Below, piece by piece: positions 3,819-59,471 of a stretch of DNA of 64,000 bases; position 1 is the stretch's first letter, and every line of letters begins with the position of its first letter. A program made the translations under genes and the position numbers. This stretch comes from Candidatus Omnitrophota bacterium (lineage in GTDB: Bacteria; Omnitrophota; Gorgyraeia; JAZDFF01). The notes under the pieces were generated by a model. It saw only the letters and a program-made list of their open reading frames with translations. It searched no databases and had not been told where the DNA came from. The stretch is from assembly GCA_043808095.1 (NCBI GenBank), contig JAZDFF010000011.1:48030-112029 (forward strand). The letters are read 5' to 3'.

Positions 3819-4107
3819 AAGTAATCCTTAAATTCGAAACAAATCTTTAGAAAACCCTAAACACTAAATTCTTCCCGCACAACTTGTAAAATATAGCGGG
3901 ATCCCGCAAAGCGGGAAAATCCTAAACAAACCTTAAACTCAAATTTTAAAATCCAAAAGCGCCTAACTTAGCTTGGGTTTTAGATTTTGTATTTTAGCCA
4001 TTTTGGGTTTATTTAGAGTTTGGGGTTTCGGATTTAGGGTTTACAATATTGGCTTTGTTGTTTTGGGATTCCATACTTCGTGCTTCGGATTTAGGGTTTA
4101 AATTAAC
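3819..4107. repeat. low-complexity intergenic region with inverted CCCTAAA/TTTAGGG words and a GCGGGATCCCGCAAAGCGGG hairpin
   Basis: Two copies of tcggatttagggttta occur, with inverted aaaaccctaaa and aatcctaaa words. ttcgtgcttcg is shared, as a reverse complement, with 1228-1239. Confidence 0.6.
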
Positions 4108-28696: not shown

Positions 28697-31600
28697 TTAC
28701 TCTTTTTTCTCTTTCTTTTCAAGAATTATTTTTGCAGCAATCTCGGCAGGAACCTGGTTGTAGCGGTCAAAATGCATGGAACAACTGGCCCGGCCGCTGC
28801 TTAGGGAGCGGAATGCCGCCGCATAACCAAACATCTCGGCAAGAGGCGCCTCAGCATAAATAATCTTCTGATTGGCCTTAGTTTCTATATTTAGGATTTT
28901 GCCTCTGCGCTGGCAGATATTGCCCACGATATTATTCGCATATTCCTCGGGGGTAGTAACCTCAAAAAGCATGCACGGCTCCAGTAATATCGGATTTCCC
29001 TTCATAAAAGCCTCTTTAAAACCAAGGATTGCCGCCATCCTGAAGGCCAATTCCGAAGAATCTACCTCATGAAAAGAACCGTCCACCAGATCAACCTTTA
29101 CGTCCACAACCGGAAATCCTGCATACGCGCCTTTTTGTATCGCTTCTTTTACGCCTTTTTCTACTGCCGGGATAAATGACTTGGGAATCGCCCCGCCCCG
29201 TATACTATCGATAAATTCCAGGCCCTTGCCTGATTCACCCGGTGCAATCTCCATAACCACATGTCCGTATTGGCCCCTTCCGCCTGATTGTTTGATGTAT
29301 TTGCCTTCGGCACTTGCCTGGCTGGTTATAGTCTCTTTGTAGGCCACCTTAGGCTGGCCTACAATAGCATCAACATTAAATTCGTTTTTGAGCCTGTCAA
29401 CGATAATTTCAAGGTGCAGCTCTCCCATGCCGGTTAAAAGGGTCTCTTTAGTCTCAAGGTCTGACTGGACAATAAATGTCGGGTCCTCTTCCGCTAGCCT
29501 GCCCAGGCCTCTGCCTAATTTGTCCTGGTCCTGGCGTGTCTTGGGTTTGATGCTTAAGGACACTACCGGTGTGGCAAACTGCATCTTCTCAAGCAGGATG
29601 GGATTATCAGAGTCGGAAAGAGTATCTCCGGTTGAGGTATTACTCAGGCCTACGGCCGCGACAATCTCTCCGGCAAAGGCGTATTCGATATTCGTCTTCT
29701 GATTTGCATGCATGCGCACGATGCGCGATACCCTTTCTTTTTTATCCTTGGTGACATTTAAGACATATGAACCGGCAACGAGCACACCGGAGTAAATCCT
29801 TACATAGACCAGGTTCCCGATATGCGGGTCAGCCTGTAATTTAAAGGCTAAGGCACAAAACGGCCCTTTATAATCAGGCAGTCTCTCCAGGGGCTTTTCA
29901 GGATCCTGCGGGTCGCTTCCTTTTACGGGAGGTAAATCTTTTGGCGACGGCAGGAAATTTAGTATGGCATCAAGCAGTTTCTGCACGCCCTTATTTTTAA
30001 GCGCGGTCCCGCATACCACGGGAACCATCTTATTTGCAATCGTTTCCCTTCTTATCGCCGCTATCAAATCTTGCTGGCTAATTGAACCTTCGGCCTCAAG
30101 GTGTTTCTTCATTAAAGCCTCGTCAAGGCTAGCCACCTTTTCAACAATCGCATGACGAGTCTGTCGGGAAATTTCTTTAAATTCTTCAGGGATATCTTCT
30201 ACCGTAAACTCTTTTCCCTGGGATTCTTCATTAAAAATATAGGCCTTCATTTCTAATACATCGATAACACCGCGGAAATTTGCCTCTGCCCCCATCGGGA
30301 TTACAACCGGAGCCACATTAGCAGCCAGACTATGCTCCATGCCTTTTAAAACGGCGAAATAATCCGCGCCCAGCCGGTCCATCTTATTAATAAAGGCAAT
30401 CTTGGGAACGTTGTATTTGTCTGATTGGCGCCAGACTGTCTCTGTTTGAGATTCCACGCCGTTTACGGCATCAAAAACCGCGACTGCACCGTCTAAAACG
30501 CGCAAGCTCCTTTCAACCTCCACAGTAAAATCAACATGGCCTGGAGTATCGATGATGATGATACGATGGTCTTTCCAGAAACAGGTGGTTGCTGCGGCAG
30601 TAATAGTAATGCCTCTTTCCTGTTCTTGTTTCATCCAGTCCATCTGGGCCTTGCCTTCATGGACCTCGCCGATTTTATGGGTCTTTCCGGTGTAAAATAG
30701 AATCCTTTCGCTTAAAGTAGTCTTACCCGCATCAATATGGGCTATGATCCCGATGTTCCTGGTTCTGTCGATGTCAATTTCAGGAGTGGCAGATAGAAGG
30801 TCTTTGGGTTTATGCTCCCGGATTTCTTCTGCTTCGGGGGTAGGCTTCGCCTCCTCTTCTTTAGCAGGCGCTTGTTTCTCGGCTGGTTTTTCTTCAGCGG
30901 GCTCTTTTATGGCTGGAGGCTCTTCGACTGGCTCTTTAATTTCCTCAGCAGGCTTTTCTTCAGGAACTACCGGAGGAGGCTCTTCAATTTTGGGACTAGC
31001 AGGCGGTTCTTGCGGCAGTGCCTCCTTTACTTCCTGCTCTTCGGATCTTATTGGTGAACCTGCCTCGATTAACTGCATCTTCAGGCGGATTCTTTCCTCA
31101 TTTACCGCCTTAAGCTGTTTTTCGGCCGTCTCTAATTCTTTCTCAAGTTCGGTATACTCCTCATTCAACCTCTCAAAATCTTTCTTGGGAACCCATTCGC
31201 TCTCTTTCTGCTTTCTCTCAAGCGAATATGCGGTATCTGCGTGTTTTTGCGCCTCCTCAGTGAGTTTTTCTATCTTAAGGTTTAACTTCAGGATATCATT
31301 AGCCAGTTTACGGTTTTGTTCTTCGGATAATTTTAGTTTTTCTTTAAAAAATACCAACTCCTGATTTAAATTTACGTTTTTATCAAAGACAGCTAATAAT
31401 TCCTTTCCCTTTTCTCTTAATTTTTCGGAAACCTCAGCGCTCTCCTGTTTGACCTTACCTAATAACTCTTCGTCCTTTTTAACCCATTCATCGCGTTTGA
31501 TTAATTTCTCTAATAAATCCGCCTTGGCATTTTGGACTTCCTCGAGTTCTCTTTTCTCTGCCTCCTGAGCCAATCTTAAATTCTCAATCTCGTTTCTTAA

Positions 31601-31771
31601 GGAAGATGCCTCTTCCTGCAGAGTCAGTATTCTTTGGGCCCGCGTATCCATCTCCTGCGGCCGGGGAATACGAGTGGCCTTCTTCTTTACTGGGGGCTCG
31701 CTGCCCAGTAATAGCCCATAACCAATAAGCACAATTCCGCCAAATGCTAAAATAACAATCGCAATAAACAT
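28697..31771 (-). CDS. elongation factor G paralog with a ~330-aa N-terminal extension (TM helix, coiled coil, Pro/Glu/Lys-rich linker)
   Basis: The C-terminal ~690 aa is full-length EF-G: [17 protein letters not shown] and NKMD motifs, then domains II-V. The N-terminus starts with [23 protein letters not shown], followed by E/K heptad coiled coil and PEPK-like repeats. Confidence 0.8.
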
Positions 31772-43437: not shown

Positions 43438-44517
43438 TTACTTGAAGAAATGTCTGGTTCTCAAGCATACTCTCACTAACATTAACATAACTGGCACTTC
43501 AATCAGCACTCCAACAACAGTTGCAAGAGATGCCCCAGAAGATAACCCAAAAAGCATCGCTGATGTGGCAATGGCAACTTCAAAGTGATTACTCGCCCCT
43601 ATCAATGCCGAAGGAGCTGCATCCACGTATGGTAATTTTAACCATTTTGCTAATCCGTATGTTAAGGCAAAAATTAAACAAGTCTGAATAAAAAGTGGTA
43701 TTGCTATTAAAAATATCACCTGAGGTTGTTTTATAATCAATCCCCCCTTAAACGAAAATAAAAGGATAAGCGTAACAAGTAACGCCCCTATAGAGACTGG
43801 CGTTAAATAATGAAGAAATTTTTCTTCAAACCACTTCAACCCTTTTTTGGCAATTATATATTTTCTAGAATGATACCCTAAGAAAAGCGGCAAACCCACA
43901 TAGATAATGACTGATAATACTATTGTCTGCCAGGGAATAGGCATTTTGTTCACCCCTAAAAGCCACCCTCCTAAAGGCGCATAAAGAAATAACATTGTAA
44001 GTGAGTTTATCGCTACCATAACAAGAGTATGCCCATCGTTACCTCTTGCTAAATGACCCCAAACAAGAACCATAGCTGTGCAAGGAGCAATCCCGAGCAA
44101 TATACAGCCAGCAATATAAGAACGGAAAAGCTCAACCTGAGCACCGCCCTTAATGATCTCAACGCCAGGAAGCCAACCCTTAAAGACAAAGCCAAGAAAA
44201 AAAGTGGCAATAGCGAGCATGGTAAAAGGCTTGATACACCAGTTTACAAACAAAGTAAGCAATACTGGCTTAGGCGTCTTTCCCGCTTTAACAACCTCGG
44301 CAAAATCAATCTTCACCATAATCGGATACATCATAAAGAATAGACATATCGCAATGGGAATGGATACTTGATATATCGAAAATTGATCAAGCGTAACAGC
44401 CATCTGAGGAAATAGCTTACCAAGAATTATGCCAAGTCCGATGCAAAGGACTACCCATCCGGTGAGATATTTTTCAAAAAAACCTAATTTTCGTTCTTCG
44501 TAGATAACTCGCTCCAT
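43438..44517 (-). CDS. acr3: arsenite efflux permease, ACR3 family
   Basis: 359 aa with a BASS/ACR3 fold. The ACR3-typical proline-rich TM pattern is present. Confidence 0.8.
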
Positions 44518-44529
44518 AGATTTTTCCTT

Positions 44530-45225
44530 CTACATAAAATTGGTAATGATATAACCCCAGATAAAATAAATTCCGACAAGTATAAAGATAATACCAGTAA
44601 TCTTTCTCGTACATAATTCAAGCGCCGCTACTTTACGGAACCATTTTGAAAAGGACGTTACGCCTATTGTAATACCCAATGCAAATACCACTACAGGAAT
44701 ACCTGTGCCTATACCGTAAAAGAAAGGCAAAATAATTCCATAACTGCTTTTTAACGCGAGAGGAATTAAGCTGCCAAAAAATAATGCCGCAGCGATTGGA
44801 CAGAAAGATAGGGCAAATATTGCTCCGAGCGTAAAAGAACCTTTTATTCCTGATTCGACTAATGCAGTTTGCTTCTGTTGCGAAACTGAGAAAATCGGAA
44901 TGTCCATCTTTATTATATCTAATAGAAACAACCCAACTATCAGTAAAACAGGGCCTAATATTTTGTTGATATATTTCTGCAAGAAATTGGCTGTTGCGGG
45001 AACGCTTGCTAATGAAGTTATGATAACTACCCCTAATACAGCATAAGTAAGCATACGTCCAACGGTATAAGCAATGCTAGATTGCAACACGAGCCTGGGG
45101 TGGCTTATTTTTTTTGATAAGAACGATATAGCTGCTATATTTGTAGCAAGAGGACACGGGCTTATAGAAGTAAGAATACCGAACCATAATGCAAAGACAA
45201 AAGGTAGTATAATCTGAATCATCAC
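44530..45225 (-). CDS. CcdA/DsbD-type transmembrane thiol-disulfide transporter
   Basis: 231 aa. Two TM cysteines are present (SPCPL and SFCPIAA). Confidence 0.7.
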   Translation of the reverse strand: MMIQIILPFVFALWFGILTSISPCPLATNIAAISFLSKKISHPRLVLQSSIAYTVGRMLTYAVLGVVIITSLASVPATANFLQKYINKILGPVLLIVGLFLLDIIKMDIPIFSVSQQKQTALVESGIKGSFTLGAIFALSFCPIAAALFFGSLIPLALKSSYGIILPFFYGIGTGIPVVVFALGITIGVTSFSKWFRKVAALELCTRKITGIIFILVGIYFIWGYIITNFM

Positions 45226-45641
45226 TGATTATCCTTTAAGTAATTATTGATTTCGGTTGTCACGTAGTTAAAGAATTTCCTTTTATCTCTCACATATTCC
45301 CATATCTTCGTAAGATTCTTATGCCGTATTTCTTTACCATTTTCTACGCGTGAGATTATAAGTGATTTCGTATAAAGTTGGTAATCATTCACGAAGTGCT
45401 CATTGCCTTTTTCTTCAACGTTTACTGTCTTAACGACAAGTAAGCCGTTAGCCAATTCATTCTTAAAATTCTCCTCAATTGCCTCCTTTGTATACTGTTC
45501 CATCTTATGACAAGTTGGACAACGGACATTACCGTGAAAATAATAAGCAATTATCTTAGCATCAGCACTAAACGCCAATGTTGCGCCTATTGCTAACACT
45601 ACCGTTAAAATGATTGGTGCGAGAAAACGCTTTATAACCAT
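45222..45641 (-). CDS. periplasmic thioredoxin-like CxxC protein
   Basis: A signal peptide precedes an RCPTCH motif. It overlaps ccdA. Confidence 0.5.
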   Translation of the reverse strand: MVIKRFLAPIILTVVLAIGATLAFSADAKIIAYYFHGNVRCPTCHKMEQYTKEAIEENFKNELANGLLVVKTVNVEEKGNEHFVNDYQLYTKSLIISRVENGKEIRHKNLTKIWEYVRDKRKFFNYVTTEINNYLKDNQ

Positions 45642-45859
45642 TTTCTAATCTCCTCTGCTGATAAAGTTTTTCCTGATGATTTGACTTTACCGTCTATAAC
45701 AAGAGCGGGCGTCATCATAACTCCGTATTCTATAATTTTATCCATATCCTCAACTTTAATAACCTCTGCCTGAACACCTTTTTCTTCAACCGCTTTCTTT
45801 GCGTTTTCATAAAGCATTTTACATTTAGGACAACCCATCCCGAGAATTTCGATTTTCAT
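45632..45859 (-). CDS. redox-active disulfide protein 2 (small thioredoxin-family protein)
   Basis: 75 aa, MKIEILGMGCPKCK..., with a CPKC active site. Confidence 0.75.
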   Translation of the reverse strand: MKIEILGMGCPKCKMLYENAKKAVEEKGVQAEVIKVEDMDKIIEYGVMMTPALVIDGKVKSSGKTLSAEEIRKWL

Positions 45860-45874
45860 TTTGCCTCCGTTATT

Positions 45875-46657
45875 TTATCTTTTTACGGCAGAAACTTTTA
45901 TGCTTGCTACTGCATCTTGAGCACCCTCAAGATTATCAAACATGGCATCCACCGGATAACTCGATTCGCTGATCACTTTAACATCCTTAAAACCAGCCAT
46001 TGCTATGAATTTTAGATATTCGTCTTTTTTAATCGCGCCGGCAAGGCAACCCACATATGCCTCAACCGATTCTTTGATAGCATCCGATAATTCCTTAACC
46101 AACACCAGATCCGAAACCATCAACCTGCCACCGGGCTTCAATACCCTAAAAGCTTCCTTAAATACCTTATTTTTATCCGGAGAGAGGTTAATAACGCAGT
46201 TTGATATGATCACATCGACCGAGCTATTATCAACCGGCAACTTTTCGATTTCGCCAAGCCTGAATTCTACATTCGTATAGCTGTCTTTTTTGGCATTCGC
46301 TTGTGCTTTTTCAATCATCTCCGGCGTCATATCAACGCCAATGACACGGCCGGCTTTCCCAACTTTAGGAGAAGCCAGAAATACATCAAACCCTGCACCG
46401 CTGCCCAAATCAAGCACCACATCGCCTTCTTTTAAGGATGCGAGTGCTACCGGATTGCCACAACCAAACCCCAGATTCGCGCCTTCAGGAACAGCATTCA
46501 TTTCCACATCGCTATATCCTACCGTCTTACTTATAGTTTTAGCTTGGCTTGTGCCGCTACAACAAGAACTTGAAGAACAACATGAAGTAGTCTGCTTCAC
46601 TGCTTTTGCGTAACCTTCCCTGACAATTTTCTTGATTTCATCTGCTTTTCCTTTCAT
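45875..46657 (-). CDS. arsM: arsenite S-adenosylmethionine methyltransferase
   Basis: SAM-MTase (VLDLGSGAG) with conserved Cys residues in FGCGNP and SNCVINL, plus a Cys-rich N-terminus. Confidence 0.8.
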   Translation of the reverse strand: MKGKADEIKKIVREGYAKAVKQTTSCCSSSSCCSGTSQAKTISKTVGYSDVEMNAVPEGANLGFGCGNPVALASLKEGDVVLDLGSGAGFDVFLASPKVGKAGRVIGVDMTPEMIEKAQANAKKDSYTNVEFRLGEIEKLPVDNSSVDVIISNCVINLSPDKNKVFKEAFRVLKPGGRLMVSDLVLVKELSDAIKESVEAYVGCLAGAIKKDEYLKFIAMAGFKDVKVISESSYPVDAMFDNLEGAQDAVASIKVSAVKR

Positions 46658-46658
46658 C

Positions 46659-46823
46659 CTATATCCTTTCCCGCTTCATCTTTGAGGCGTTTTCCCTGTT
46701 GATTTGTTTCTTTATCACTTCCTTAACGAAATCCAACGCCCCGTCTTTATCATGATCGATCACAATTTTCTCTACTTTGAGCAAATCATCATCCGTAAGA
46801 TTAATAATCTTTTTATTCGTCAT
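46659..46823 (-). CDS. 54-aa hypothetical protein (below the ORF-track cut-off)
   Basis: MTNKKIINLTDDDLLKVEKIVIDHDKDGALDFVKEVIKKQINRENASKMKRERI*. It is tightly packed between the permease and arsM. Confidence 0.4.
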   Translation of the reverse strand: MTNKKIINLTDDDLLKVEKIVIDHDKDGALDFVKEVIKKQINRENASKMKRERI

Positions 46824-46829
46824 TCGTCC

Positions 46830-48002
46830 CTACTTTACGATAAATCCAAAAATCATTCCGCATATAGTTGCCATAACAACAACAAGACCAGCATATACGA
46901 TTGTTTTCTTGGTACCAATAATACCTCGTATAACCAACATGCTGGGTAAACTTAAAGCGGGCCCGGCCAAAAGAAGCGCCAAAGCAGGCCCCTTGCCCAT
47001 ACTTGAGCCGATCAAACCCTGTAAAATTGGCACTTCGGTAAGTGTAGCAAAATACATAAAAGCGGCAACTATCGAAGAAAAGAAATTTGCGCGCAGGGAA
47101 TTACCGCCCACTAGCATTTCAACAAAACTTGAAGGAATAACTCCCTCATGCCCAACTCTACCCAGTAAAAATCCCGAAATGAGCACCCCTCCCAGCAAGA
47201 GAGGAAGAATTTGCAAAGCGAAACCCCATGTTGCAGATGTCCATTCCTTTAATTCTTCTTTCTTGAACCATTTGAAAATCATAAGGGCGAGGCTAAAAAG
47301 AGAAAAACCGGCAATCCACCATTTATATTGGTAAATTAATGACCATATTCCCTGATCGCCCTCAAGAGATTTGCCCCAGTTGGCAAAAACGAGAAAAGCA
47401 ACCATAGAAGCAAAGTACAGAATTGTCTTGCCTAAAGAGCGATTTTCTTTTATCTCGCCTATGGCAAAATCGCCGTTTGCATGGCGCTGTCTTTCTTCTT
47501 TTAAGAATATCAAGTGCATTAATAAGCCGATAACGACGCTAAATAGAACTGCACCTATGGCCCTTGCTAATCCAAGTTGCCAACCAAGGATGCGGGCGGT
47601 AAGAATTATTGCAAGGACATTGATTGCCGGGCCTGAATATAAAAAAGCAATCGCTGGTCCTAAGCCAGCGCCCCTTTTATATATGCCAGCAAAAAGCGGT
47701 AAAACTGTACAAGAACATACTGCAAGGATTGCTCCTGAAACAGAGGCAACGCTGTAAGAAAGGAATTTGTTTGCCTTTACCCCGAAATATTTCATCACCG
47801 AGGCCTGGCTGACAAAAACAGAAATTGCGCCGGCTATAAAGAAAGCTGGCACAAGACACAAAAGCACATGTTCCCGGGCATACCACTTTACCAATGCCAA
47901 AGATTCAAAGATTGGGTTTCTAAAAGGCAAAAGTTCTACCGGCAGAAAGTAACATCCTAAGAATACAGCCAGTATTAAGAAAAACCTATTCTTCTCTTTC
48001 AT
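46830..48002 (-). CDS. COG0701/DUF318 predicted permease
   Basis: 390 aa, multi-TM. It overlaps the DUF134 gene by 4 nt. Confidence 0.65.
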   Translation of the reverse strand: MKEKNRFFLILAVFLGCYFLPVELLPFRNPIFESLALVKWYAREHVLLCLVPAFFIAGAISVFVSQASVMKYFGVKANKFLSYSVASVSGAILAVCSCTVLPLFAGIYKRGAGLGPAIAFLYSGPAINVLAIILTARILGWQLGLARAIGAVLFSVVIGLLMHLIFLKEERQRHANGDFAIGEIKENRSLGKTILYFASMVAFLVFANWGKSLEGDQGIWSLIYQYKWWIAGFSLFSLALMIFKWFKKEELKEWTSATWGFALQILPLLLGGVLISGFLLGRVGHEGVIPSSFVEMLVGGNSLRANFFSSIVAAFMYFATLTEVPILQGLIGSSMGKGPALALLLAGPALSLPSMLVIRGIIGTKKTIVYAGLVVVMATICGMIFGFIVK

Positions 48003-48304
48003 TTCTTTCCTCGCATAATAATCTTACAGCAACCGCCTTCGATTCTTATTGCCTTAACATTTACTAAAGCATCAGCTATTTTTTTATGAGCTGAATCAAC
48101 GATTCTCGAAATAGTAGAACGATGGACTTTCATTTTTTTAGCAATTTTTTCTTGGTCTAACCCTTCTAAATCGCTAAGTCTTATAGACTCAAACTCATCA
48201 ATGGTCAAAATAACCCCTTTTAATTTATTTAATGGTTTGCATTGTGGACGGAAACACCTTTCTCCTGGCTCACATTTAACCCATCTTATTTTTTTAGGTC
48301 TCAT
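47999..48304 (-). CDS. DUF134/UPF0251 predicted DNA-binding protein
   Basis: 101 aa. The pattern MRPKKIRWV...P...FRP...L..DE.E.IRL.D..GL matches DUF134. Confidence 0.6.
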   Translation of the reverse strand: MRPKKIRWVKCEPGERCFRPQCKPLNKLKGVILTIDEFESIRLSDLEGLDQEKIAKKMKVHRSTISRIVDSAHKKIADALVNVKAIRIEGGCCKIIMRGKK

Positions 48305-48375: not shown

Positions 48376-48831
48376 TAAAAACCTACCTAATAAACTAGAG
48401 AGGTATCTTGCCAATTTCTTATATAATGCCCAGAAATGCATCCTGATATCGTCGGATTCTGTCAATAATTTCATTATATACAAGCCATTATATAAAAGCC
48501 ATTTTAGAGATACATTGCAAGTAATTGAAAGAAAATTTAACCTGCTCTTTGATAAAAGCTTAAACCCTCCATTTCATTTACTAGAGATAAATCAAGCCAA
48601 TTCCTAGAAAATGGCCATAATAAATCAAAGAAAAATCAAATATCTCAGCTAAAAAGCATTTACTAGGCACCATTTACTAAGATGGCTTTTAGAGATAATT
48701 AGCGCTATATTCGACGAGCTTTGGAAAGTGACTCTGAGATTTTGCAAGGAGGAGTAAATTTGATCGATTGATCTACCCAACAAATAAAAAATAATGCCCC
48801 AACTCTTTAAAACCTAAAGGCATAAAAAAAG

Positions 48832-48858
48832 CTCTGATTGAATTTGTCAATCAGAGCT
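48832..48858 (-). terminator. kdpD terminator (bidirectional hairpin)
   Basis: aaaaaaaGCTCTGATTGAatttgTCAATCAGAGCtttt. Confidence 0.7.
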
Positions 48859-49005
48859 TTTGACCTCTCTCGACGGAGAATGAGAGAGAAGAAACTGGCT
48901 CCCCCGCGAGGACTCGAACTAATACTTAATCCTGTTTGTATTTATCGCTCTAACCTTAATTATACTTAACCCTTCTTAACCGGGCTTAATCCTTCTAACT
49001 TGATA

Positions 49006-51186
49006 TTACTTTTCTGATTCAATTATTTGTGGCAACTCAGCAATAAGAGTATTTAAACGCTCTGTTTCTTGACGCATCTTCTCTATTAAGGCAGAACGCT
49101 TTGATTCATTATTTAGATTTTCCGGATTTAACAATTCCGAAGCTGTTTGAGAAATAGATGTTAACGGCTCAGTGAGTCCTGAGGAAAACGTAGTTAAAAG
49201 CAGATTACGTAGACGCTCATTCTCAATCCTAGATTCCGCATCAAGAGCTGCTGCAGCAAGCTGTGCACCTTCGACAGCCAAAGCAGTTTGATTGACGAAC
49301 ATCTCCAATATATGTAACTGTTCCGGGTCAACAAATTGTGTCTCCTGAGTCGGAAAAACTCCCAAAACTCCCACTGTTTTTTCTGCGCCAGTAAAAGGCA
49401 AGTACATACCGTTTGATCCGGGCAGAGTATCTGTACCCTTACCTGCGGATTTCTTATGCTCAAATACCCATTGTGCAACAGCCACCTCATTTGAATCTAG
49501 CGCTAATTGTACAACTTCACCAAACCGGGCTTCCAGCCTCTTGTTTTTATCCGGCACAAAAATAACTGCTCTGCACTTAAAAAAATCTTCGATATGCGAA
49601 AGTGCAATCTTAAACAATTCATCGGGATAAGAACTTTTTGAAAGCTCGTGGCTTAAGGCATAAAGCGTTTTAGTTCGGTCTTCACGAATCCCCATGTTAA
49701 TAGTTTGGCGCCTAAGTTGCCCAGTTAAATGCGCTATCATAAGACCAACGCCCAGCATCACTATAAATGTAAAAACATACTCAACATCTGCTACCGCAAA
49801 AGTAAAATATGGCCGCACAAAAAAGAAATCAAAAAATAAGACACTAAAAAACGATGCTATCATTGATATCCGGCGTCCATACCGGAAAGCAATCCAAGTT
49901 ACGCCAAGAAGGTAAACCATAATCAAATTAACTAGCGATAAGTGCAACAAAAGCAGAATCCAGTCAACTAAAGTACAAATAATAACAACGCCAATAGCCA
50001 GCCCCAGATTTTTCCAAGAAAAAGGAATCAAGGCAGGCGGCTTAAATTTAACCGGCTGCTCCTGGGTATCCCCGCTCAACAAATACAGATCAATGTCCTG
50101 GCATTTACGGGCTAATTTGTCAAATATTGAACCGAAAATCAATTCACGCAGCTTTGGTTTTCCAGGCTTTCCAATGATTATCTTTGTTACATTTTTTGAG
50201 CGGGCGTATGAAATTAATGTCTCTACGATATCCTGACCACTAAGCGTTACAATTTGAGCGCCCAATTTTTCCGCAAAATTAAGCATCTCGGACACCCTGT
50301 TTTTATCTTCCGGACGCAATTCGGCAAGAGGTTCAACATATGCCACGATCCACTCTACTCCCAAATCTAAAGCGATACGCTTACCCGCTCTGATTAATCC
50401 CATCGCAGAGGGGCTCGGACTTATACAGACCAAAAATCTATCCCTCACATTCCAAACTTTTGAAACAGCGTGTTCTTTTTTATATGACATCAATTTACTG
50501 TCAACATTGCGCTCTGTATAGCGCAGGGCCAATTGACGCAAAGCAATCAAATTACCCGGCTGGAAGAAATGTTCTGTTGCCGCTTGAGCTTGTTCACCAA
50601 GATATACCTTTCCTTCTTTTAACCGTTTGAGAAGCTCTTCGGTAGGAAGATCCACTAGCTCTATTTCGTCAGCCTGTTCGATAAATGTATCAGGAATAGT
50701 TTCGCGTACGATAACGCCGGTTACCTGAGCCACAATATCGTTGGCGCTTTCGCAATGCTGGACATTTAAGGTAGTATATACATCAATGCCTTGGTCGAGA
50801 AGTTCTTGGACGTCTTGCCAGCGTTTTGGATGACGAGAACCGGGAGCATTGGTATGTGCTAATTCGTCCACTAAAATAAGCTTTGGTTTTCTCTTTAAAC
50901 CAGCATCAATATCAAATTCACGCAACTGAACATTTTTATAAGAGATGATTTTAGGCGGGAGTATTTCGAGGCTTTCCAAAAGCGCTTCAGTCTCAGCGCG
51001 TTTATGAGTTTCTACATATCCGACCACAACATCAATACCTTCTTTTTTGCAGGCCCTGGCGGCTTCAAGCATCGAATAAGTTTTTCCGACACCCGCGACT
51101 GCTCCAAAGAAAATCTTAAGTTTACCGCGCTGGCTCTCTTCGGCTTTAACCTTAGCTAAGATTACATCAGGATCTGGTCTTTCCAT
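49006..51186 (-). CDS. kdpD: KdpD-like sensor protein without a kinase domain
   Basis: It has a KdpD N-terminal domain (GAVAGVGKTYSM), then USP, four TM helices and GAF. The DHp remnant reads SSGLTEPLTSI where SHELRTPLT is expected. There is no HATPase domain. Confidence 0.8.
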   Translation of the reverse strand: MERPDPDVILAKVKAEESQRGKLKIFFGAVAGVGKTYSMLEAARACKKEGIDVVVGYVETHKRAETEALLESLEILPPKIISYKNVQLREFDIDAGLKRKPKLILVDELAHTNAPGSRHPKRWQDVQELLDQGIDVYTTLNVQHCESANDIVAQVTGVIVRETIPDTFIEQADEIELVDLPTEELLKRLKEGKVYLGEQAQAATEHFFQPGNLIALRQLALRYTERNVDSKLMSYKKEHAVSKVWNVRDRFLVCISPSPSAMGLIRAGKRIALDLGVEWIVAYVEPLAELRPEDKNRVSEMLNFAEKLGAQIVTLSGQDIVETLISYARSKNVTKIIIGKPGKPKLRELIFGSIFDKLARKCQDIDLYLLSGDTQEQPVKFKPPALIPFSWKNLGLAIGVVIICTLVDWILLLLHLSLVNLIMVYLLGVTWIAFRYGRRISMIASFFSVLFFDFFFVRPYFTFAVADVEYVFTFIVMLGVGLMIAHLTGQLRRQTINMGIREDRTKTLYALSHELSKSSYPDELFKIALSHIEDFFKCRAVIFVPDKNKRLEARFGEVVQLALDSNEVAVAQWVFEHKKSAGKGTDTLPGSNGMYLPFTGAEKTVGVLGVFPTQETQFVDPEQLHILEMFVNQTALAVEGAQLAAAALDAESRIENERLRNLLLTTFSSGLTEPLTSISQTASELLNPENLNNESKRSALIEKMRQETERLNTLIAELPQIIESEK

Positions 51187-51223
51187 AAGTCTAATTATAC
51201 CTCATAAAATATGTCTATGTTAT

Positions 51224-51802
51224 TCATTTCTTATAAGCATCTAACGCTAAATTTAGTTCCAGCACATTTACAACCGGCTCCCCTATAATTCCAAATAAAC
51301 GCCCAGAAGTATGCTTGGCGATGAGAATCCTAATTGTATCTTGTGATAATCCCCTAAGCCGTGCAATACGCGGAGCCTGATAATACGCCGCCGCTAAACT
51401 AATATGCGGATCCAGCCCGCTTGCTGATGAAGTAACTAAGTCAACCGGTATAGGAGTTGTATTGTCAGAATCGGCTAGCCTTAAAGCTTTAATGCGCGCT
51501 TTCACTGCCTCAAGTAATACCGGATTAGACGGCCCTAGATTTGAGCCTGACGAAGAAGCTGCGTTAAAAGAAACAGGCGATGTCGCTGAAACACGACCCC
51601 AAAAATACTTGGGATCATTAAATGCCTGGCCGATAAGAGATGAACCAACCGGCTTACCGTTTCGGTAGATTAAACTGCCATTGGCTTGATTCCGAAAAAA
51701 TACTTGAGCAATCCCGGTAATAAAAAGCGGATAAATAATGCCTGTCATTATTGATAAAACTATAAAAATTAGAATCGCTTGTTTTATTTGTCCCTTAAAC
51801 AT
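51224..51802 (-). CDS. kdpC: K+-transporting ATPase subunit C
   Basis: 192 aa, full-length KdpC. Confidence 0.9.
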   Translation of the reverse strand: MFKGQIKQAILIFIVLSIMTGIIYPLFITGIAQVFFRNQANGSLIYRNGKPVGSSLIGQAFNDPKYFWGRVSATSPVSFNAASSSGSNLGPSNPVLLEAVKARIKALRLADSDNTTPIPVDLVTSSASGLDPHISLAAAYYQAPRIARLRGLSQDTIRILIAKHTSGRLFGIIGEPVVNVLELNLALDAYKK

Positions 51803-51810
51803 ATTTGTCC

Positions 51811-53889
51811 TTATCGAACTAAATGTAGTGCCACTAAAACCATATCAATCAATTTTATCCCTATAAATGGCGCAATAATTCCGCCAACTCCATAGATAAA
51901 TAAATTATCACGTAAAAGCCGGCTTGCCGGCATCGGCTTATAATGAATGCCTTTTAATGCTAGAGGAATAAGAAATATAATAATAAGCGCGTTAAATATG
52001 ACCGCAGACAGAACCGCACTCCCAGGCGTAGACAAATGCATAATATTAAGTGCGCCAAGTGCCGGATATGTTCCTACAAAGGCAGCCGGTATAATAGCAA
52101 AGTACTTAGAGACATCGTTAGCGATACTAAATGTCGTAAGTGAGCCGCGGGTCATAAGAAGCTGCTTGCCAATTTCAACGATCTCAATAAGCTTTGTGGG
52201 ATTAGAATCAAGATCAACCATATTCCCAGCTTCCTTTGCAGCCTGCGTTCCGGTATTCATAGCAACAGCTACATCAGCCTGCGCAAGAGCGGGCGCGTCA
52301 TTTGTCCCGTCACCGGTCATTGCAACAAGCCTGCCCCTTTCCTGCATTTTACGTATATATTTAAGCTTGGTTTCAGGTGTGGCTTGCGCCAGAAAATCAT
52401 CCATACCGGCTTCAGCGGCAATTGCTGCGGCAGTCAAAGGATTATCTCCTGTAATCATTACGGTTTTAATACCCATACGCCTGAGTTCGGCAAAACGCTC
52501 TTTAATGCCGCCCTTAATAATGTCTTTTAGCTGAATTACCCCAAGCACATTATTATGTTCTGCGACAACCAAAGGTGTCCCCCCGCTTTTAGATATGGAA
52601 TCAATAGATGCCTTTAAATCTTCGGGAAATAAACCGTTGAGTTTCTTTACATAATCTTCGATAGCATCAACTGCTCCTTTTCTGATTTGCCTGCCATCGC
52701 CTAAATTAACTCCGCTCATCCGCGTTTGTGCCGAAAAGGGAATAAAATGTGCGCTAAGTTCATGAATTTGGCGCTCCCTGATGCCGTATTTCTCTTTAGC
52801 CAATACTACAATGCTCCTTCCTTCGGGAGTTTCGTCTGACAAGGAAGCAAGCTGAGCTGCATCGGCCAACGCTTCAGCACTAATTCCCTGAGACGGAAAA
52901 AAAGCTACCGCTTGTCTATTACCAAGTGTGATTGTTCCAGTTTTATCCAAAAGTAATACGTCCACATCTCCGGCTGCTTCTACTGCCCGACCCGATGTAG
53001 CGATGATATTTGCTTGAATCATCCTATCCATGCCAGCGATACCTATAGCAGACAACAATCCTCCAATAGTAGTAGGAATAAGACATACAAGCAATGCAAC
53101 TAATACCGTTACTGTAATAGGCTGGCCTTGACCGGCTGCGTTTACGCTATAAAGAGAAAATGGCAATAGCGTTGCTGTGGCTAAAAGAAAAATAAGCGTA
53201 AAAACTGCCAAAAGGATGCTAAGCGCGATTTCATTGGGAGTCTTCTGCCTTTTTGCTCCTTCAACCATCGCAATCATATGATCAAGGAATGTCTCTCCCG
53301 GATTAGAAGTGATACGGACCACAAGCCAGTCCGAAAGCACTTTTGTTCCGCCGGTAACAGCGCTGCGGTCTCCTCCGCTTTCGCGTATAACCGGAGCGCT
53401 CTCTCCAGTAATTGCGCTTTCGTCAACAGAAGCCACTCCCTCGATTACATCTCCATCCATTGGGATAATGTCGCCTGCCTCAACGAGAATAACATCTCCT
53501 TTGCGAAGTGTAGTAGCAGATACTTTCTCCTGAGCGGAGCCATAATTTGGCTTTAAAAGTTTTCTAGCAATAGTATCCTTGCGGGCTTTTCTTAAACTCT
53601 CAGCCTGAGCTTTTCCGCGGCCTTCAGCCATAGCTTCGGCAAAATTGGCAAAAATAAGGGTAAACCACAACCAAAGTGTTATAGCTAATATAAAACCTGC
53701 GGGAGCTTCCCCACGCCCCATTAAGGCTTGGAAATATAAACCCGTAGTCAAAAGACTCCCCACTAAAACTACAAACATTACGGGATTTTTAATCTGATGT
53801 CGGGGATCTAATTTTTTTATTGAATTGACGGCTGCCGGCCCACAAATAGCCGGATCAAATAAAGATTTAGCTTTATGTGATTTACTCAT
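51811..53889 (-). CDS. kdpB: K+-transporting P-type ATPase subunit B
   Basis: DKTGTIT, TGDN and [10 protein letters not shown] motifs are present. Confidence 0.95.
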
Positions 53890-53897
53890 AAAAACTC

Positions 53898-55643
53898 CTA
53901 AATACTGCGCAACATAAGATGCTCAACAATCGGTCCCAAAGCCAAAGCCGGAAAAAATGTAAGCGCTCCAACGATTAAAATAACCATAACTAAAAATATA
54001 ATAAAAAGCGGCGTATGCGTAGGTAGTGTCCCTGGACTTGCCGGAACAATCTTTTTCTTGGAAAGCGAACCTGCTATGGCTAGCATCGGTATGGCCAGCC
54101 AGTATCTAGCAAAAAACATTGCTAATCCTTGGGCTATATTATAAAAAAGATTATTAGTAGATAATCCAGCAAACGCACTCCCATTGTTATTACTTGCCGA
54201 TGAAAAAGCATATAATATTTCACTAAATCCGTGAGGCCCGGGATTTAAAATCGAGTTTTTCCCTGCGGGCACAATAACTGAAATTGCTGTGCCTATAAGA
54301 ACAAGTATAGGCGGTATTAAAATCATAAGTGAAGCCATTTTCATTTCGTAGCTTTCGATTTTCTTACCTAAATATTCGGGAGTCCTGCCAATCATAAGTC
54401 CGGAAATAAAAACAGCAATAATTACAAAAGCGATCATGCCATAAAGACCGGAACCAACTCCGCCAAAGATTACTTCTCCTAATTGCATAAGCCACATCGG
54501 AATCATTCCACCCAGAGGCATATAAGAATCGTGCATTGAATTTACCGAACCATTGGATGCCGCGGTTGTAGCCGTTGCCCAAATAGCAGAATTTACTATT
54601 CCAAAACGCGCTTCCTTCCCTTCCATGTTACCACCAGCCTGAGATGTTGAATAATTTTGATCAATACCGAGATTGTTAAACAATGGGTTTCCTTTTTGCT
54701 CGAAATGAATACATGTCCATAGGCAAGGAATAAAAATAATCAACATCGCAATTAACAACGCCCAACCTTGTCGACGGTCTCTAACCATATACCCGAACGT
54801 ATAACATAATGCAGCAGCTATTAAAAGTATGGCCAAAACTTCCAGAAAGTTTGACAAAGGCGTGGGGTTCTCAAAAGGATGAGCAGAATTGACATTAAAG
54901 AACCCGCCCCCATTAGTGCCTAGTTGTTTAATGGCAACCTGCGATGCAGCAGGGCCTAAAGCAATTACTTGTTCTGTAACAGCCTTTCCATCCGTATCTT
55001 TCGAAACCTCAAGCAAGGCTACTTTTGCGCCAGGTTTAAAAGTCTGGACAACCCCTTGAGATACTAAAATAAAAGACAGAAGTAATGCGAGAGGAATTAA
55101 AATATAAAGTACGGATCTAACCAAATCTACCCAAAAGTTACCGATTGTTTCTGCCTGTTTCTGGATAAATCCCCTGATTGAAGCTACAAGAATTGCCATA
55201 CCCGTTGCCGCAGAAACAAAGTTTTGCACAGTTAACCCAAGCATCTGCGTAAAATAACTCAAAGTTGTTTCGCCACCGTAACTTTGCCAATTTGTATTAG
55301 TTGCAAAACTTACCGCCGTATTAAAGGCCAAGTCTGGCTTAACCGCAGGCATAGACATGGGGTTCAAAATAAAGTGCGCTTGAAAACGCTGAAGGGCGTA
55401 TACAACAATTATACCTATAATATTAAACAGCATCATGCTAACGGCATAAGTTTTCCAGGACATTTCTTGTTCGGGTTTAACTCCACAGGTTCGGTAAATT
55501 AACTTTTCTAACCATACAAACCAAACATTTAAACCTGCCGGCTTGCCTTCGTAAATTCGCGCCATATAAATCCCGAGCGGCTTAACCATAAAAAGCAATA
55601 CAGCAATATAGACGGTGCTTTGAATGAGATTATTCCAATTCAT
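53898..55643 (-). CDS. kdpA: K+-transporting ATPase subunit A
   Basis: 581 aa with a 10-TM KdpA channel-like fold. Confidence 0.9.
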
Positions 55644-55656
55644 GAGAAAATCTCCA

Positions 55657-56628
55657 TTACAAAATATCCTTTTCTTCTATTATCTTCATCTCAACAATTT
55701 CGTCCATTCCTTTTACCAACGCTGTCGCTTTTTCTTTTCCTAAGACAAAAATGGCGGTACTCATCGCATCCGCTGCAGTTGTGGTATCAGCTACGATAGT
55801 TACAGAAACAATCCCATTATCAACCGGATAGCCTGTTTTAGGATTTATGATATGGCTGTAACGTTTCCCGTTAAGCATAAAAAATTGCTCGTAGTCACCT
55901 GATGTGGCTACTGCCTGGTTTTCAAGATCCAAAGGATAGAGTATCTGGCCAGGATTGCGTGGATGACGTATGGCCACTCGCCATTTACGGTTTCCTCTCC
56001 TGCCCAAACAGTAGATATCACCGCTTAAGTTTACCATTGCCGAGGTTATTCCCAAAGACTTAAGACGGCCGACGGCTTTATCGACTGCGTATCCCTGAGC
56101 AATTCCTCCCAAGTCAATTGCCATACCTGGCTGCATAAACGTAATCAAAGATGTTGTTTCATCAATTGAAATTTTTTCCGAGCCAATGAGCGGCAACTTT
56201 GCGTAGATATCATGAGAAGGAGGCAACGATACTTGCGTTTTTTCCTCCTGCGCCTCTTTGATTTTTTGTTTCCATATATCAGCCACGGGACTAACGGTAA
56301 TATCAAATGCATCGTTACTGAGCTTGTGGTATTTAAGCGAATTTTTCACCAGGGCCATCATATCGCCTGATGCCTTGAGGGTTCCCATTCTGTTCAGTTG
56401 CGATATTTCTGATGAGGGGTCAAAATTACTGGCTATTGCCTCGATCTTGCTTATCTCCTCAAACGCAGCATTAATTGCGTCTTTATCCTGGCAGGTAATT
56501 TCTGCAAACGTCCCCATTACAATACGAGTCTCTGTATAGTAAGGTCTGGAACAACCGAATAATCCAAACCACAGGACCAAGAGAATCGAAATCCTAAAAA
56601 AGAAACATCGGAAACTATTAATCCTCAT
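55657..56628 (-). CDS. apbE: FAD:protein FMN transferase (ApbE-family lipoprotein)
   Basis: A lipobox-like LFGC is followed by ...RIVMGTFAEI (the MGT motif) and an ApbE fold. Confidence 0.75.
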   Translation of the reverse strand: MRINSFRCFFFRISILLVLWFGLFGCSRPYYTETRIVMGTFAEITCQDKDAINAAFEEISKIEAIASNFDPSSEISQLNRMGTLKASGDMMALVKNSLKYHKLSNDAFDITVSPVADIWKQKIKEAQEEKTQVSLPPSHDIYAKLPLIGSEKISIDETTSLITFMQPGMAIDLGGIAQGYAVDKAVGRLKSLGITSAMVNLSGDIYCLGRRGNRKWRVAIRHPRNPGQILYPLDLENQAVATSGDYEQFFMLNGKRYSHIINPKTGYPVDNGIVSVTIVADTTTAADAMSTAIFVLGKEKATALVKGMDEIVEMKIIEEKDIL

Positions 56629-56717
56629 GAGAAAATCTCCGGTTTCAGAAGGGCAATCAAAAGATAAATCAGTAAAAGTACTGAAACAATACTACCAATC
56701 CAATAAATAGCTGGCAT
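56625..56717 (-). CDS. kdpF: K+-transporting ATPase subunit F (30 aa; absent from the ORF track)
   Basis: Hand translation gives MPAIYWIGSIVSVLLLIYLLIALLKPEIFS*. An AGGAGG SD lies 9 nt upstream, and the stop overlaps the apbE start (ATGA). Confidence 0.7.
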   Translation of the reverse strand: MPAIYWIGSIVSVLLLIYLLIALLKPEIFS

Positions 56718-56729
56718 GCGATAGGCCTC

Positions 56730-56810
56730 CTATACCTTACTACACAGAATAATGAACGCAAAAGAAGTTATGGCTAAACCTATTATTATAATTACTAAAA
56801 GAATATCCAT
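56730..56810 (-). CDS. 26-aa hydrophobic peptide between the riboswitch and kdpF (possible leader peptide; speculative)
   Basis: MDILLVIIIIGLAITSFAFIILCSKV*, preceded by a GAGGAG SD. Confidence 0.25.
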   Translation of the reverse strand: MDILLVIIIIGLAITSFAFIILCSKV

Positions 56811-56822
56811 CGCCCGCTCCTC

Positions 56823-56849
56823 AAAAAAACCAAAGAACGCTTTCTCTGG
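56823..56849 (-). terminator. riboswitch expression-platform terminator
   Basis: Minus strand reads CCAGAGAAAGCGTTCTTTGGTTTTTTT. Confidence 0.6.
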
Positions 56850-56854
56850 TGTGT

Positions 56855-56980
56855 TCTCTCTACTGGCCTACGAGGTTAGCTGTCGGGCTCGGGTCGAGCA
56901 ACCCTAATCTGATATTACTAGATATTCGCCCCAAGATCACAACTTGATCAGATTCTTGGGTTCCCCGCTATCTTTTTAGG
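56855..56980 (-). promoter_or_regulatory. cyclic-di-AMP (ydaO/kimA-type) riboswitch in the kdp leader
   Basis: Minus strand reads ...gcGGGGAACCcaag...CGACCCGAGCCCGACAGCTAACCTCGTAGGCcagt. This matches the conserved ACCCGACAGCUAACCUCGUA 3' signature of the ydaO class. Confidence 0.65.
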
Positions 56981-57142
56981 TTTGAAATATCACCCAAAAA
57001 GAGATTAAGCTTATTGAAATTAAATATAGCGCAATTAATCCTTTTGTCAAGTTTGATCACTCGCTAGTTAAGCAAGATGTTCACGCTCAAAACGCCCTGA
57101 AGTGACTCACCATAAAATACTCTCTCTAAACAGGCAGGACAA

Positions 57143-57903: not shown

Positions 57904-58605
57904 TTATCCATACCTTCCAGTAATGTAATCTTCTGTACGTTTATCGTGCGGCGCTGTAAATAATTCTTGGGTCTTACCAAACTCTATTAACTCACCTAAG
58001 AGCATAAAGCCCGTATCATCAGAGACACGCGCTGCCTGTTGCATATTATGAGTAACTATTATTATAGTATAATTTGCTTTAAGTTCACGCATTAATTCCT
58101 CAATCCTTGCTGTAGCCTGCGGATCCAAAGCAGAGCATGACTCATCCATTAACAATACATCGGGCTTAACCGCAATAAGCCTGGCAATACACAATCTTTG
58201 CCTTTGCTCTAACGATAACCGTAAGGCAAACTCATTTAACCTGTCTTTTAAGTCATCCCATAAGAGGACACTTTTTAAACTTTTCTCGACAACCTCATCT
58301 AGGGCATCGCGTTTTACATTATCACCGTGGATCTTTTCCCCGAAAACAATGTTTTCATAAATCGAAAGTGGAAATGGGTTTGGCCGCTGGAATACCATTC
58401 CTACCTTCTTCCTCAATGTTACTAAATCTGTGTGGGAATTAAGAATATTTTTACCGTCAATCAAGACTTCGCCTTCAGTACGTACGCCTTCGATTAAATC
58501 ATTCATGCGGTTAAAAACCCTAAGCAAGGTAGACTTGCCGCATCCGGAAGGCCCGATGATAGCAGTAATCCTATTCGCTTCGAAGGCCGAGTTTATATCC
58601 TTCAA
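57904..58605 (-). CDS. pstB: phosphate ABC transporter ATPase PstB1 (degenerate signature motif LSLEQ)
   Basis: Walker A (GPSGCGKST), Q-loop (FQRPNPFP), Walker B (LLMDE) and H-loop (VTHNMQQ) are intact. The signature is LSLEQRQR instead of LSGGQQQR. Confidence 0.9.
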
Positions 58606-58724: not shown

Positions 58725-59471
58725 TTAACCAAACTTTCCTCTAATATAACCATCCGTGCGTTTGTCCTTCGGAGCAGTAAAAATTATATCCGTTTTATCT
58801 ATTTCGATAAGTTCACCGCTTAAGAAAAAGGCTGTTCTATCTCCTACTCTTGCCGCCTGTTTTACATTATTAGTCACCAAAACGATAGTATATTTTTCTT
58901 TTATCTTGACCATGGCGTCTTCTACTTTGGCAGTAGAGATAGGGTCTAGTCCAGAGCAGGGTTCGTCAAACAAAATTACCTCCGGCTCAACCGCTAATGT
59001 CCTTGCAATGCAAAGACGTTGCTGCTGGCCGCCAGATAATTCGAAAGCTGATTCATCTAACCTATCCTTTACTTCTTCCCAGAGATATCCTTGTTTTAAC
59101 GCTTCTTCTACCTTCTCGGTGAGTCTCTTTTTATCTCTTACGCCATTCATCCTTAACCCGTAAGCCACATTATCAAAAATAGATAACGGAAGCGGCAAGG
59201 GCAGCGCAAATACCATGCCTACTTTACGGCGCAATGATTCTATATCCAGCCCACGAATATCTTTCCTCTCTAATTCTACCGCTCCGGATATCTTATAGCC
59301 TATAGTAAGATCATTCAGGCGATTTAGCGTTCTTAAGAAAGTCGTCTTTCCGCTATTTGAAGGCCCAATGATGCTTAAGATCTCGTTAGAATTGATCTCA
59401 ATATTAATATGCTTTACGGCATGCACGGCGCCAAACCATATGTTTAAATCGTGGGTTTCAAATTTTACCAT
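58725..59471 (-). CDS. pstB: phosphate ABC transporter ATPase PstB2 (degenerate Q-loop and H-loop)
   Basis: It has GPSNSGKTT, an intact LSGGQQQR signature and ILFDE. The Q-loop is FALPLP and the H-loop is VTNNVKQ. Confidence 0.85.

Follow-up and report, generated by a model that had tools for sequence, protein, structure and literature searches.

A c-di-AMP riboswitch-associated kdp operon of Omnitrophota with a histidine-kinase-dead KdpD and an apbE gene inserted between kdpF and kdpA

Organization of the kdp operon

A 64-kb stretch of DNA from a Candidatus Omnitrophota bacterium (contig JAZDFF010000011.1, positions 48,030 to 112,029; called the window here, and all positions refer to it unless a related locus is named) carries on its minus strand a kdp operon with the gene order orf26-kdpF-apbE-kdpA-kdpB-kdpC-kdpD. 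The operon is headed by a leader with a riboswitch of the ydaO class for cyclic di-AMP (c-di-AMP) and contains apbE, a gene for FAD:protein FMN transferase (FAD, flavin adenine dinucleotide; FMN, flavin mononucleotide). An earlier, sequence-only reading of this DNA took the position of apbE as a hint that a partner is flavinylated or that K+ uptake receives a redox input. The comparative analysis described here indicates that the locus is probably a standard Kdp system, governed by c-di-AMP and independent of KdpE, into which apbE has been inserted recently and precisely as a co-transcribed passenger.

All elements described below lie on the minus strand. A site with 11 of 12 consensus matches, TTGACA-16-TATATT (57023 to 57050), is a putative sigma-70-like promoter directly 5′ of the riboswitch aptamer, and shares the top score in the 9-kb region scanned for promoters. 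The aptamer and its terminator are followed by orf26, for a hydrophobic peptide of 26 aa, and then by kdpF (56625 to 56717; 30 aa; PF09604, E 5.5e-7; TIGR02115, 33.2 bits against a cut-off of 26.85), apbE (55657 to 56628), kdpA (53898 to 55643; 581 aa; PF03814, 824 bits), kdpB (51811 to 53889; 692 aa; PF00122 for the E1-E2 ATPase and PF00702 for the HAD part of a P-type ATPase), kdpC (51224 to 51802; 192 aa; PF02669, 253 bits) and kdpD (49006 to 51186; 726 aa). All four pump subunits are matched by Pfam, so that kdpFABC is complete, and the sequence-only reading had named these four genes correctly. KdpB keeps the catalytic motifs DKTGT (315-319) and TGES (161-164), and Ser164 of the latter is equivalent to Ser162 of the Escherichia coli protein. 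A strong intrinsic terminator with a 15-bp stem and U7 (48824 to 48861; -20.4 kcal/mol, z -6.7) closes the operon. The 700-bp spacer 3′ of kdpD contains no open reading frame (ORF), no significant match to an RNA family and no remnant of a kdpD catalytic domain or of kdpE.

The riboswitch leader

The aptamer (56851 to 57021) was assigned to RF00379, the ydaO/yuaA class, with the Rfam covariance model, which it matches over positions 1-134 of 134 with 71.8 bits (E 1e-14; gathering score, 38). The c-di-AMP riboswitch that had been proposed for this leader is thus borne out by Rfam, and its location was right, although the interval first given, 56855 to 56980, spans only the 3′ two thirds of the aptamer. 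The adjacent intrinsic terminator (56823 to 56850), which had been proposed together with it, begins 1 nt past the 3′ end of the aptamer and consists of a 9-bp stem (56850-56829), a 4-nt loop and U7 (-9.7 kcal/mol, z -3.1). A 7-bp alternative pairing in the leader, AGAGAAC/GUUCUUU, was spotted by eye and set aside as too weak to be convincing as an antiterminator.

Eight related kdp operons (L090 to L097) were retrieved for comparison. RF00379 lies upstream of five of them (L091, L092, L093, L096 and L097; 59.9-77.1 bits), and at threshold it was not found in the leaders of the other three, L090, L094 and L095. In L090 (2386-2560), a tRNA-His gene has taken the place of three quarters of the aptamer on its 5′ side, and only about 25 nt of the aptamer 3′ end are left together with the terminator. 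The leader hairpin is kept in L090, L091, L092, L095 and L097, where it forms a perfect 9-bp stem with a G-C pair in place of the G-U pair of the window.

OFF-switch control of kdp by a riboswitch of the ydaO class has been shown experimentally in Bacillus thuringiensis (Wang et al., 2019; PMC6488665). As in the window, the kdpFABC operon of strain BMB171 has a ydaO-class aptamer and an intrinsic terminator in its 5′ leader, lacks kdpE, and has a kdpD without histidine-kinase function 3′ of kdpC; high c-di-AMP brings about termination, and K+ limitation allows read-through. The remark in the sequence-only reading that riboswitch control together with a truncated KdpD is known from some Firmicutes is supported by that work. 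By analogy, transcription starting at the putative promoter of the window would pass into the aptamer; with c-di-AMP high (K+ replete), the hairpin and the U-tract would terminate it, and with c-di-AMP low (K+ limitation), read-through would allow expression of orf26-kdpF-apbE-kdpA-kdpB-kdpC-kdpD. We infer that the whole operon, apbE included, is co-transcribed.

The two systems differ in several respects. The host phylum here is Omnitrophota, whereas the 12 species described with the B. thuringiensis operon were all Bacillales, to which the arrangement was deemed restricted (PMC6488665). KdpD of the window has 726 aa, with transmembrane (TM) and GAF domains and a tail that resembles a dimerization and histidine phosphotransfer (DHp) domain but is devoid of the His, whereas that of B. 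thuringiensis has 365 aa and the N-terminal domain only. The window operon also has an extra conserved ORF of 26 aa before kdpF, and apbE between kdpF and kdpA.

KdpD without the histidine-kinase parts

KdpD of the window is composed of KdpD_N, Usp, four-TM DUF4118 and GAF_3 domains and the DHp-like tail, and has no catalytic and ATP-binding (CA) domain. A Pfam scan gave no match to HisKA (PF00512) or HATPase_c (PF02518), NCBIfam PRK10490 is matched from model position 6 to 717 out of 895 only, with 686 bits (cut-off, 1123), and Ser669 occupies the position of His673 in E. coli KdpD. The loss of both the DHp His and the ATPase domain had already been read from the sequence, and it stands. Because acceptor His and ATPase domain are both missing, the protein should be unable to act as a histidine kinase. 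The N-terminal domain retains its nucleotide-binding motifs: Walker A GAVAGVGKT at 28-36, Walker B DE at 107-108, and the adenine-binding Arg, equivalent to R190, in KRLKEGKVY.

The same form of KdpD makes up a large family: at 68% identity or more there are at least 120 cluster representatives, with few exceptions 722-732 aa long; according to precomputed Pfam lists, HisKA and HATPase_c are absent from all of these representatives except one (P0202). An alignment of 119 homologues with E. coli KdpD shows no variation in Walker A (G-x5-GKT), Walker B (D-E) or the Arg equivalent to R190; at the position of His673, Ser (83) is followed by Tyr (24) and Leu (4) as the commonest residues. The position of W39 is Tyr throughout the family. 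Conservation of the DHp-like tail is 0.78, compared with 0.76-0.89 for the other KdpD domains. Since the motifs are invariant, and the His-less pattern and the tail are conserved across these 119 homologues, KdpD is a selected kinase-dead form and not a pseudogene.

A cognate regulator is also missing from the vicinity. Among 60 window ORFs scanned against Pfam there was no OmpR-type response regulator (Response_reg/Trans_reg_C) or KdpE, and tblastn with a PhoB-like regulator gave no match in the window, in line with the earlier statement that no kdpE is adjacent. No diadenylate cyclase was found in the window.

The protein was also compared with two other KdpD types. NCBIfam NF038185, a KdpD-like non-kinase potassium sensor of 373 aa, is matched with 381.5 bits, below its cut-off of 550, and the window KdpD adds the TM, GAF and DHp-like parts to that architecture. 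The Usp domain found in KdpD of Staphylococcus aureus binds c-di-AMP through the motif SxS-X20-FTAxY (PMC4686210). The Usp domain of the window reads SPS (256-258)-X20-WIVAY (279-283), a partial fit that has SxS and the last Tyr, with W in place of F, I in place of T (T occurs in 34 of the 119 homologues) and V in place of A.

The N-terminal domain of KdpD alone is an atypical serine kinase, which phosphorylates KdpB at Ser162 and thereby inactivates it, and deletion of DHp-CA has no effect on this activity (Silberberg et al., 2024; PMC11018627). The same study recognised a class of KdpD whose DHpCA domains at the C terminus are cut short, so that histidine-kinase activity is lost, and which is found in species without KdpE. 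The window KdpD fits this class, with which it shares the invariant Walker A and B motifs and adenine-binding Arg, the TGES of KdpB and the absence of KdpE nearby. The class was placed mainly in Campylobacterota and Archaea, and a riboswitch was tied only to Bacillota with short KdpD/Usp forms (PMC11018627), whereas here a riboswitch is combined with a truncated-DHpCA KdpD that retains the K+-sensing TM and GAF domains. Further differences from the published cases are the Tyr in place of W39 and the Usp domain that fits the S. aureus motif only in part. Because the N-terminal domain with its invariant Walker motifs is kept, the sole activity of KdpD is most likely that of an atypical serine kinase, with Ser164 of KdpB as its target by analogy with the E. 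coli pair. It would phosphorylate KdpB at the TGES serine and so turn the pump off after K+ returns.

The riboswitch, kdpFABC and a His-less KdpD of about 725 aa together constitute an operon type that is widespread in Omnitrophota. Riboswitch control and the kinase-less KdpD are both already explained by published work, and no new principle is involved. Since the earlier riboswitch cases were all from Bacillales and had a KdpD of 365 aa, the Omnitrophota family is a phylogenetic extension and an architectural hybrid, the latter because its KdpD retains the TM and GAF domains for K+ sensing. Being large and highly conserved in Omnitrophota and neighbouring uncultured phyla, it widens the design of c-di-AMP control with a kinase-dead KdpD beyond Bacillales.

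Insertion of apbE between kdpF and kdpA

The ATG of apbE and the TGA of kdpF overlap as ATGA, and the product matches PF02424 with 288.5 bits against a cut-off of 25.6, in agreement with the first description of an ApbE-family lipoprotein gene overlapping the stop codon of kdpF. The gene is bordered by a 16-nt direct repeat, GGAGATTTTCTCATGA, which occurs exactly twice in the 64 kb, with 0 copies expected. The left copy (56625 to 56640) comprises the last codons and the stop codon of kdpF, and its ATG now serves as the start of apbE. The right copy (55640 to 55655) starts 1 nt past the stop codon of apbE and provides the ribosome-binding site and ATG for kdpA. In the canonical operons L091-L094, kdpF overlaps kdpA as ...GGAGATTTTCTCATGAATTGG..., the 16-mer is present once at this place and there is no apbE; in L095-L097, which have the KdpA proteins closest to that of the window (91-93% identity), no apbE is called upstream of kdpA. 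Because the two repeat copies abut the start and the stop of apbE, the insert amounts to exactly one ORF, with translational coupling kept on both sides. The gene would have been dropped into the kdpF/kdpA overlap with duplication of 16 nt, and since these include the ribosome-binding site and the ATG, both apbE and kdpA would still be served for translation. The insertion presents a clean natural case of how an operon can take up a gene and stay translationally coupled, through duplication of a ribosome-binding site and start codon. The G+C content at third codon positions is 0.43 in apbE and 0.33-0.37 in the kdp genes.

An origin from a transposon, an insertion sequence or an integrative cassette was considered and rejected, as the insert is a single ORF and Pfam detected no recombinase in the neighbourhood. 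No terminal inverted repeats were seen at the insert, as judged by eye only.

The arrangement is rare. Absent from seven of the eight related kdp operons (L091-L097), apbE is present only in L090, which has the order orf26-kdpF-apbE-kdpA-kdpB with the same junctions as the window and an ApbE that is 88% identical. These two are the only carriers found: none of 89 other ApbE loci, 83 from scans of genome and metagenome contigs and six orthologue loci (L036-L041), has a kdp neighbour. An orthologue of 72% identity (L036) is flanked by tRNA-Gln and an sdpI-like gene and has a two-component system, a porin gene and pst-phoU genes downstream. Those with about 60% identity have polX on one side and an NfnAB-like gene pair on the other. 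In other Omnitrophota (L038, 7038-10257; L039; L040, 10001-13109; L041), apbE belongs to a conserved polX-apbE-(DHODB_Fe-S_bind)-(Fer4_20/Pyr_redox_2) block beside an NfnAB-like pair, with stop and start codons touching or overlapping; ApbE of L040 and L041 (282 aa) leaves no room for a signal peptide and may be cytoplasmic.

The insert has a history separate from that of its surroundings. When the window is compared with L090, the DNA of apbE shows 91.5% identity without gaps, with a synonymous divergence (dS) of 0.225. Identity falls to 82% in the left flank and to 78% in the 5′ part of kdpA (Fisher p 2e-4 and 5e-16), and dS of kdpA and kdpB is 1.3-1.44. The kdpA, kdpB and leader of the window are closer to those of the apbE-free operons L092, L095, L096 and L097 (dS 0.37-0.8; 82-90% identity in the leader) than to those of L090. 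As apbE is younger than its flanks, either it moved as a cassette between diverged kdp operons or the flanks were replaced up to its edges; transfer between operons may perhaps have proceeded by recombination in the short conserved junction. The ratio of nonsynonymous to synonymous divergence (dN/dS) of apbE against L090 is 0.26. In L090, kdpA (within 3748-5380) has suffered two frameshifting deletions, of 85 nt and 23 nt, and apbE is intact.

The ApbE protein and its possible substrates

The apbE ORF of the window is intact across 323 codons. Its product has a lipobox, LFGC, with Cys26, and an N-terminal signal region homologous to those of relatives (P0003, P0008 and P0020). The closest solved structure is 7esa (E 2.4e-43), and the segments with His259 (YSHIINP) and Asp287/Thr291 (DAMSTA) align to solved ApbE proteins; through comparison with Vibrio cholerae ApbE (PMC5655446), these residues are taken to be the catalytic His and the Mg2+ ligands. 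PF02424, the lipoprotein signal, YSHIINP, DAMSTA and GGIAQG are all shared with the ApbE/Ftp transferases represented by the 7esa chain, V. cholerae ApbE and Treponema pallidum Ftp. The protein is thus apparently a functional flavin transferase, predicted to be a periplasmic lipoprotein.

Known apbE genes are neighbours of their own substrates, such as nqr, rnf, nos, pplA, DUF2271 and DUF3570 genes and similar ones, and a typical apbE cluster codes for a substrate with Dxx[S/T]GA[S/T]. In contrast, the window apbE stands in an ion-pump operon, has no recognisable substrate beside it, and is placed under a c-di-AMP riboswitch. A search for the flavinylation motif [S/T]GA[S/T] through every product of the operon and every window ORF of 80 aa or more found none in KdpF, KdpA, KdpB, KdpC, KdpD or the orf26 product. 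The sole occurrence in the 64 kb is SGAS at residue 327 of an SBF-family transporter, probably Acr3 (43438-44517), and is probably due to chance. No FMN_bind, Rnf or Nqr genes were found in the window.

Role of apbE in the operon

If apbE is a passenger, as its insertion signature and the rarity of the arrangement suggest, the substrates of ApbE would be encoded elsewhere in the genome and the gene would simply be co-transcribed under riboswitch control. The flavinylated partner or redox input to K+ uptake suggested by the sequence-only reading is not supported, given the lack of the motif in Kdp products, the seven relatives free of apbE, the orthologues residing elsewhere, the marks of recent insertion, and L090, where kdpA is broken and apbE intact. 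Three observations weigh against our preferred interpretation. No antiterminator was identified by folding of the leader. The gene occupies one and the same junction in two kdp operons whose closest relatives are other operons, and its transfer between them, or its retention while the flanks were replaced, is a hint that the arrangement is selected. Moreover, V. cholerae ApbE is activated about 10-fold, and specifically, by K+ (PMC5655446), which is a conceivable reason for induction of apbE together with kdp at low K+; such co-induction could be compensatory, as a speculation from a distant homologue. These points lead to the main rival explanation, namely that the co-regulation is adaptive, with low K+ or low c-di-AMP calling for more flavinylation capacity, either since a K+-activated periplasmic ApbE loses activity at low external K+ or since flavinylated ion pumps (Rnf/Nqr) have to be renewed to drive K+ uptake. 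The c-di-AMP regulon would then extend to protein flavinylation. The younger age of the insert compared with its flanks in two diverged operons, its trimming to the ORF from the shared ATGA to 1 nt past the stop codon with coupling kept on both sides, and the dN/dS of 0.26, a sign of purifying selection in the kdp location, all speak for such a role. However, only two carriers were found, with seven family operons and 89 ApbE loci showing no link; apbE persists in L090 where the riboswitch is destroyed and kdpA frameshifted; K+ activation is known for one distant ApbE only; and nothing on an ApbE-Kdp link was found in the literature searched, including part of the supplement to the eLife flavinylation survey. 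We therefore regard adaptive co-regulation as unlikely. Still, a functional link is not dismissed outright, because the history of the insert, with its mismatch of dS to the flanks, is the one point that the passenger status leaves unexplained. A more specific form of it, in which the apbE ORF is a small mobile cassette that spreads among diverged kdp operons by recombination at the 16-nt junction and is kept because low K+ or c-di-AMP demands a higher periplasmic flavin-transferase activity from a K+-activated ApbE, seems to us doubtful as well, and slightly more so. If it were correct, protein flavinylation, and hence ion pumps of the Rnf/Nqr type, would come under c-di-AMP control; adaptive co-regulation in general would mean that c-di-AMP and K+ status govern the flavinylation of membrane redox pumps, a link so far undescribed.

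Two further explanations are far less probable than either of these. One of the Kdp components might be a new, non-canonical flavinylation substrate that gives the pump a redox input; KdpC, which has a periplasmic domain, the loops of KdpA, KdpF and the orf26 peptide would be candidates. The location of apbE inside the operon, its translational coupling to kdpF, and the periplasmic position predicted from the lipobox would suit such a role, and some of the genomes in the eLife survey have apbE without an identified substrate (PMC8238504). Yet none of KdpF, KdpA, KdpB, KdpC, KdpD and the orf26 product has [S/T]GA[S/T], the arrangement is very rare, and the Kdp proteins are 80-95% identical to those of apbE-free operons, so that no substrate-specific adaptation is visible; a Kdp substrate is accordingly very improbable. 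It is just as hard to believe that the position of apbE is an artefact of assembly or binning in a chimeric contig, or that the gene is a decaying pseudogene. The source is indeed a metagenome-assembled genome (MAG), and the NCBI annotation gives a shorter product of 286 aa from Met38. However, an independent JGI assembly, L090, shows both junctions identically, and the 16-nt duplication is a signature of biological insertion; decay is contradicted by the intact ORF of 323 codons, the lipobox homologous to that of relatives, the conserved segments with His259 and Asp287/Thr291, and the dN/dS of 0.26.

A conserved small ORF before kdpF

The hydrophobic ORF of 26 aa noted earlier between the leader and kdpF is real. 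It lies at 56730 to 56810, has its own GAGGAG ribosome-binding site and encodes MDILLVIIIIGLAITSFAFIILCSKV. It is found between the terminator and kdpF in six relatives (L090, 2580-2660; L091, 5572-5652; L092, 5271-5351; L093, 5356-5436; L095, from 483; L097, from 310), with the consensus MDILFVVIIIGLAI.SFAFIILCSKV. Its differences by codon position, 22/10/46, show an excess at the third position. No family in Pfam or NCBIfam matches the product, for which the roles of a leader peptide or of an additional small subunit of Kdp are conceivable. We take the kdpZYABCXDE operon of Clostridium acetobutylicum to be a similar case in gene layout: presumably it has small hydrophobic ORFs before kdpA besides the KdpF equivalent, as well as a foreign-looking gene inside the operon, and is regulated by KdpDE without a riboswitch.

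Spread of the family and neighbouring genes

KdpD and KdpA proteins of the family, at 70-84% identity, are annotated in MAGs of Omnitrophota, Sedimentisphaerales, Margulisiibacteriota, Patescibacteria, Elusimicrobia and Poribacteria. Such a spread points to horizontal transfer of the entire operon, occurring frequently, or else to errors in binning.

Just past the stop codon of kdpD (48896-48919 and 48941-49000, minus strand) there are five heptamers resembling GGTTAAG/GATTAAG and then GTTCGAGTCCTCGCGGGGGAGCCA, which resembles the 3′ end of a tRNA, with T-loop, acceptor strand and CCA, and is a possible remnant of an attachment (att) site. There is no intact tRNA in the window, and the fragment has no similarity to the transfer-messenger RNA (tmRNA) genes of L091 and L092, where smpB and the tmRNA gene lie 1.3-3.6 kb downstream of kdpD. 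Beyond kdpD, at 43438-48304 on the minus strand, is a cluster of arsenic/thiol type with a DUF134 regulator, an ArsP_1 permease, an S-adenosylmethionine-dependent methyltransferase, DsbD_2 and the SBF-family transporter that is probably Acr3. In L096 (5126-9391), DUF134, ArsP_1 and DsbD_2 genes form a similar cluster ahead of the kdp operon. Since the cluster follows kdpD in the window and precedes kdp in L096, the arsenic/thiol and kdp modules seem to move as a pair whose order varies.

Directly upstream of the kdp leader is a pstSCAB-phoU operon with two tandem pstB-like genes (57904-58605 and 58725-59471, minus strand), both of whose products match PstB of L036, with identities of 56% and 51%. 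The pst regions of the window and of L036 are syntenic, and in L036 apbE lies on the opposite side of the cluster. Farther away, at 28697-31771 on the minus strand, the window encodes a homologue of elongation factor G of 1024 aa, with an N-terminal extension of about 335 aa without a Pfam match and a GTPase domain that spans 274 residues for a profile length of 188. The QueC gene of L091 (19245-21425) carries an intein that includes a LAGLIDADG endonuclease domain, and its product is 726 aa long, as compared with 223 aa in L092.

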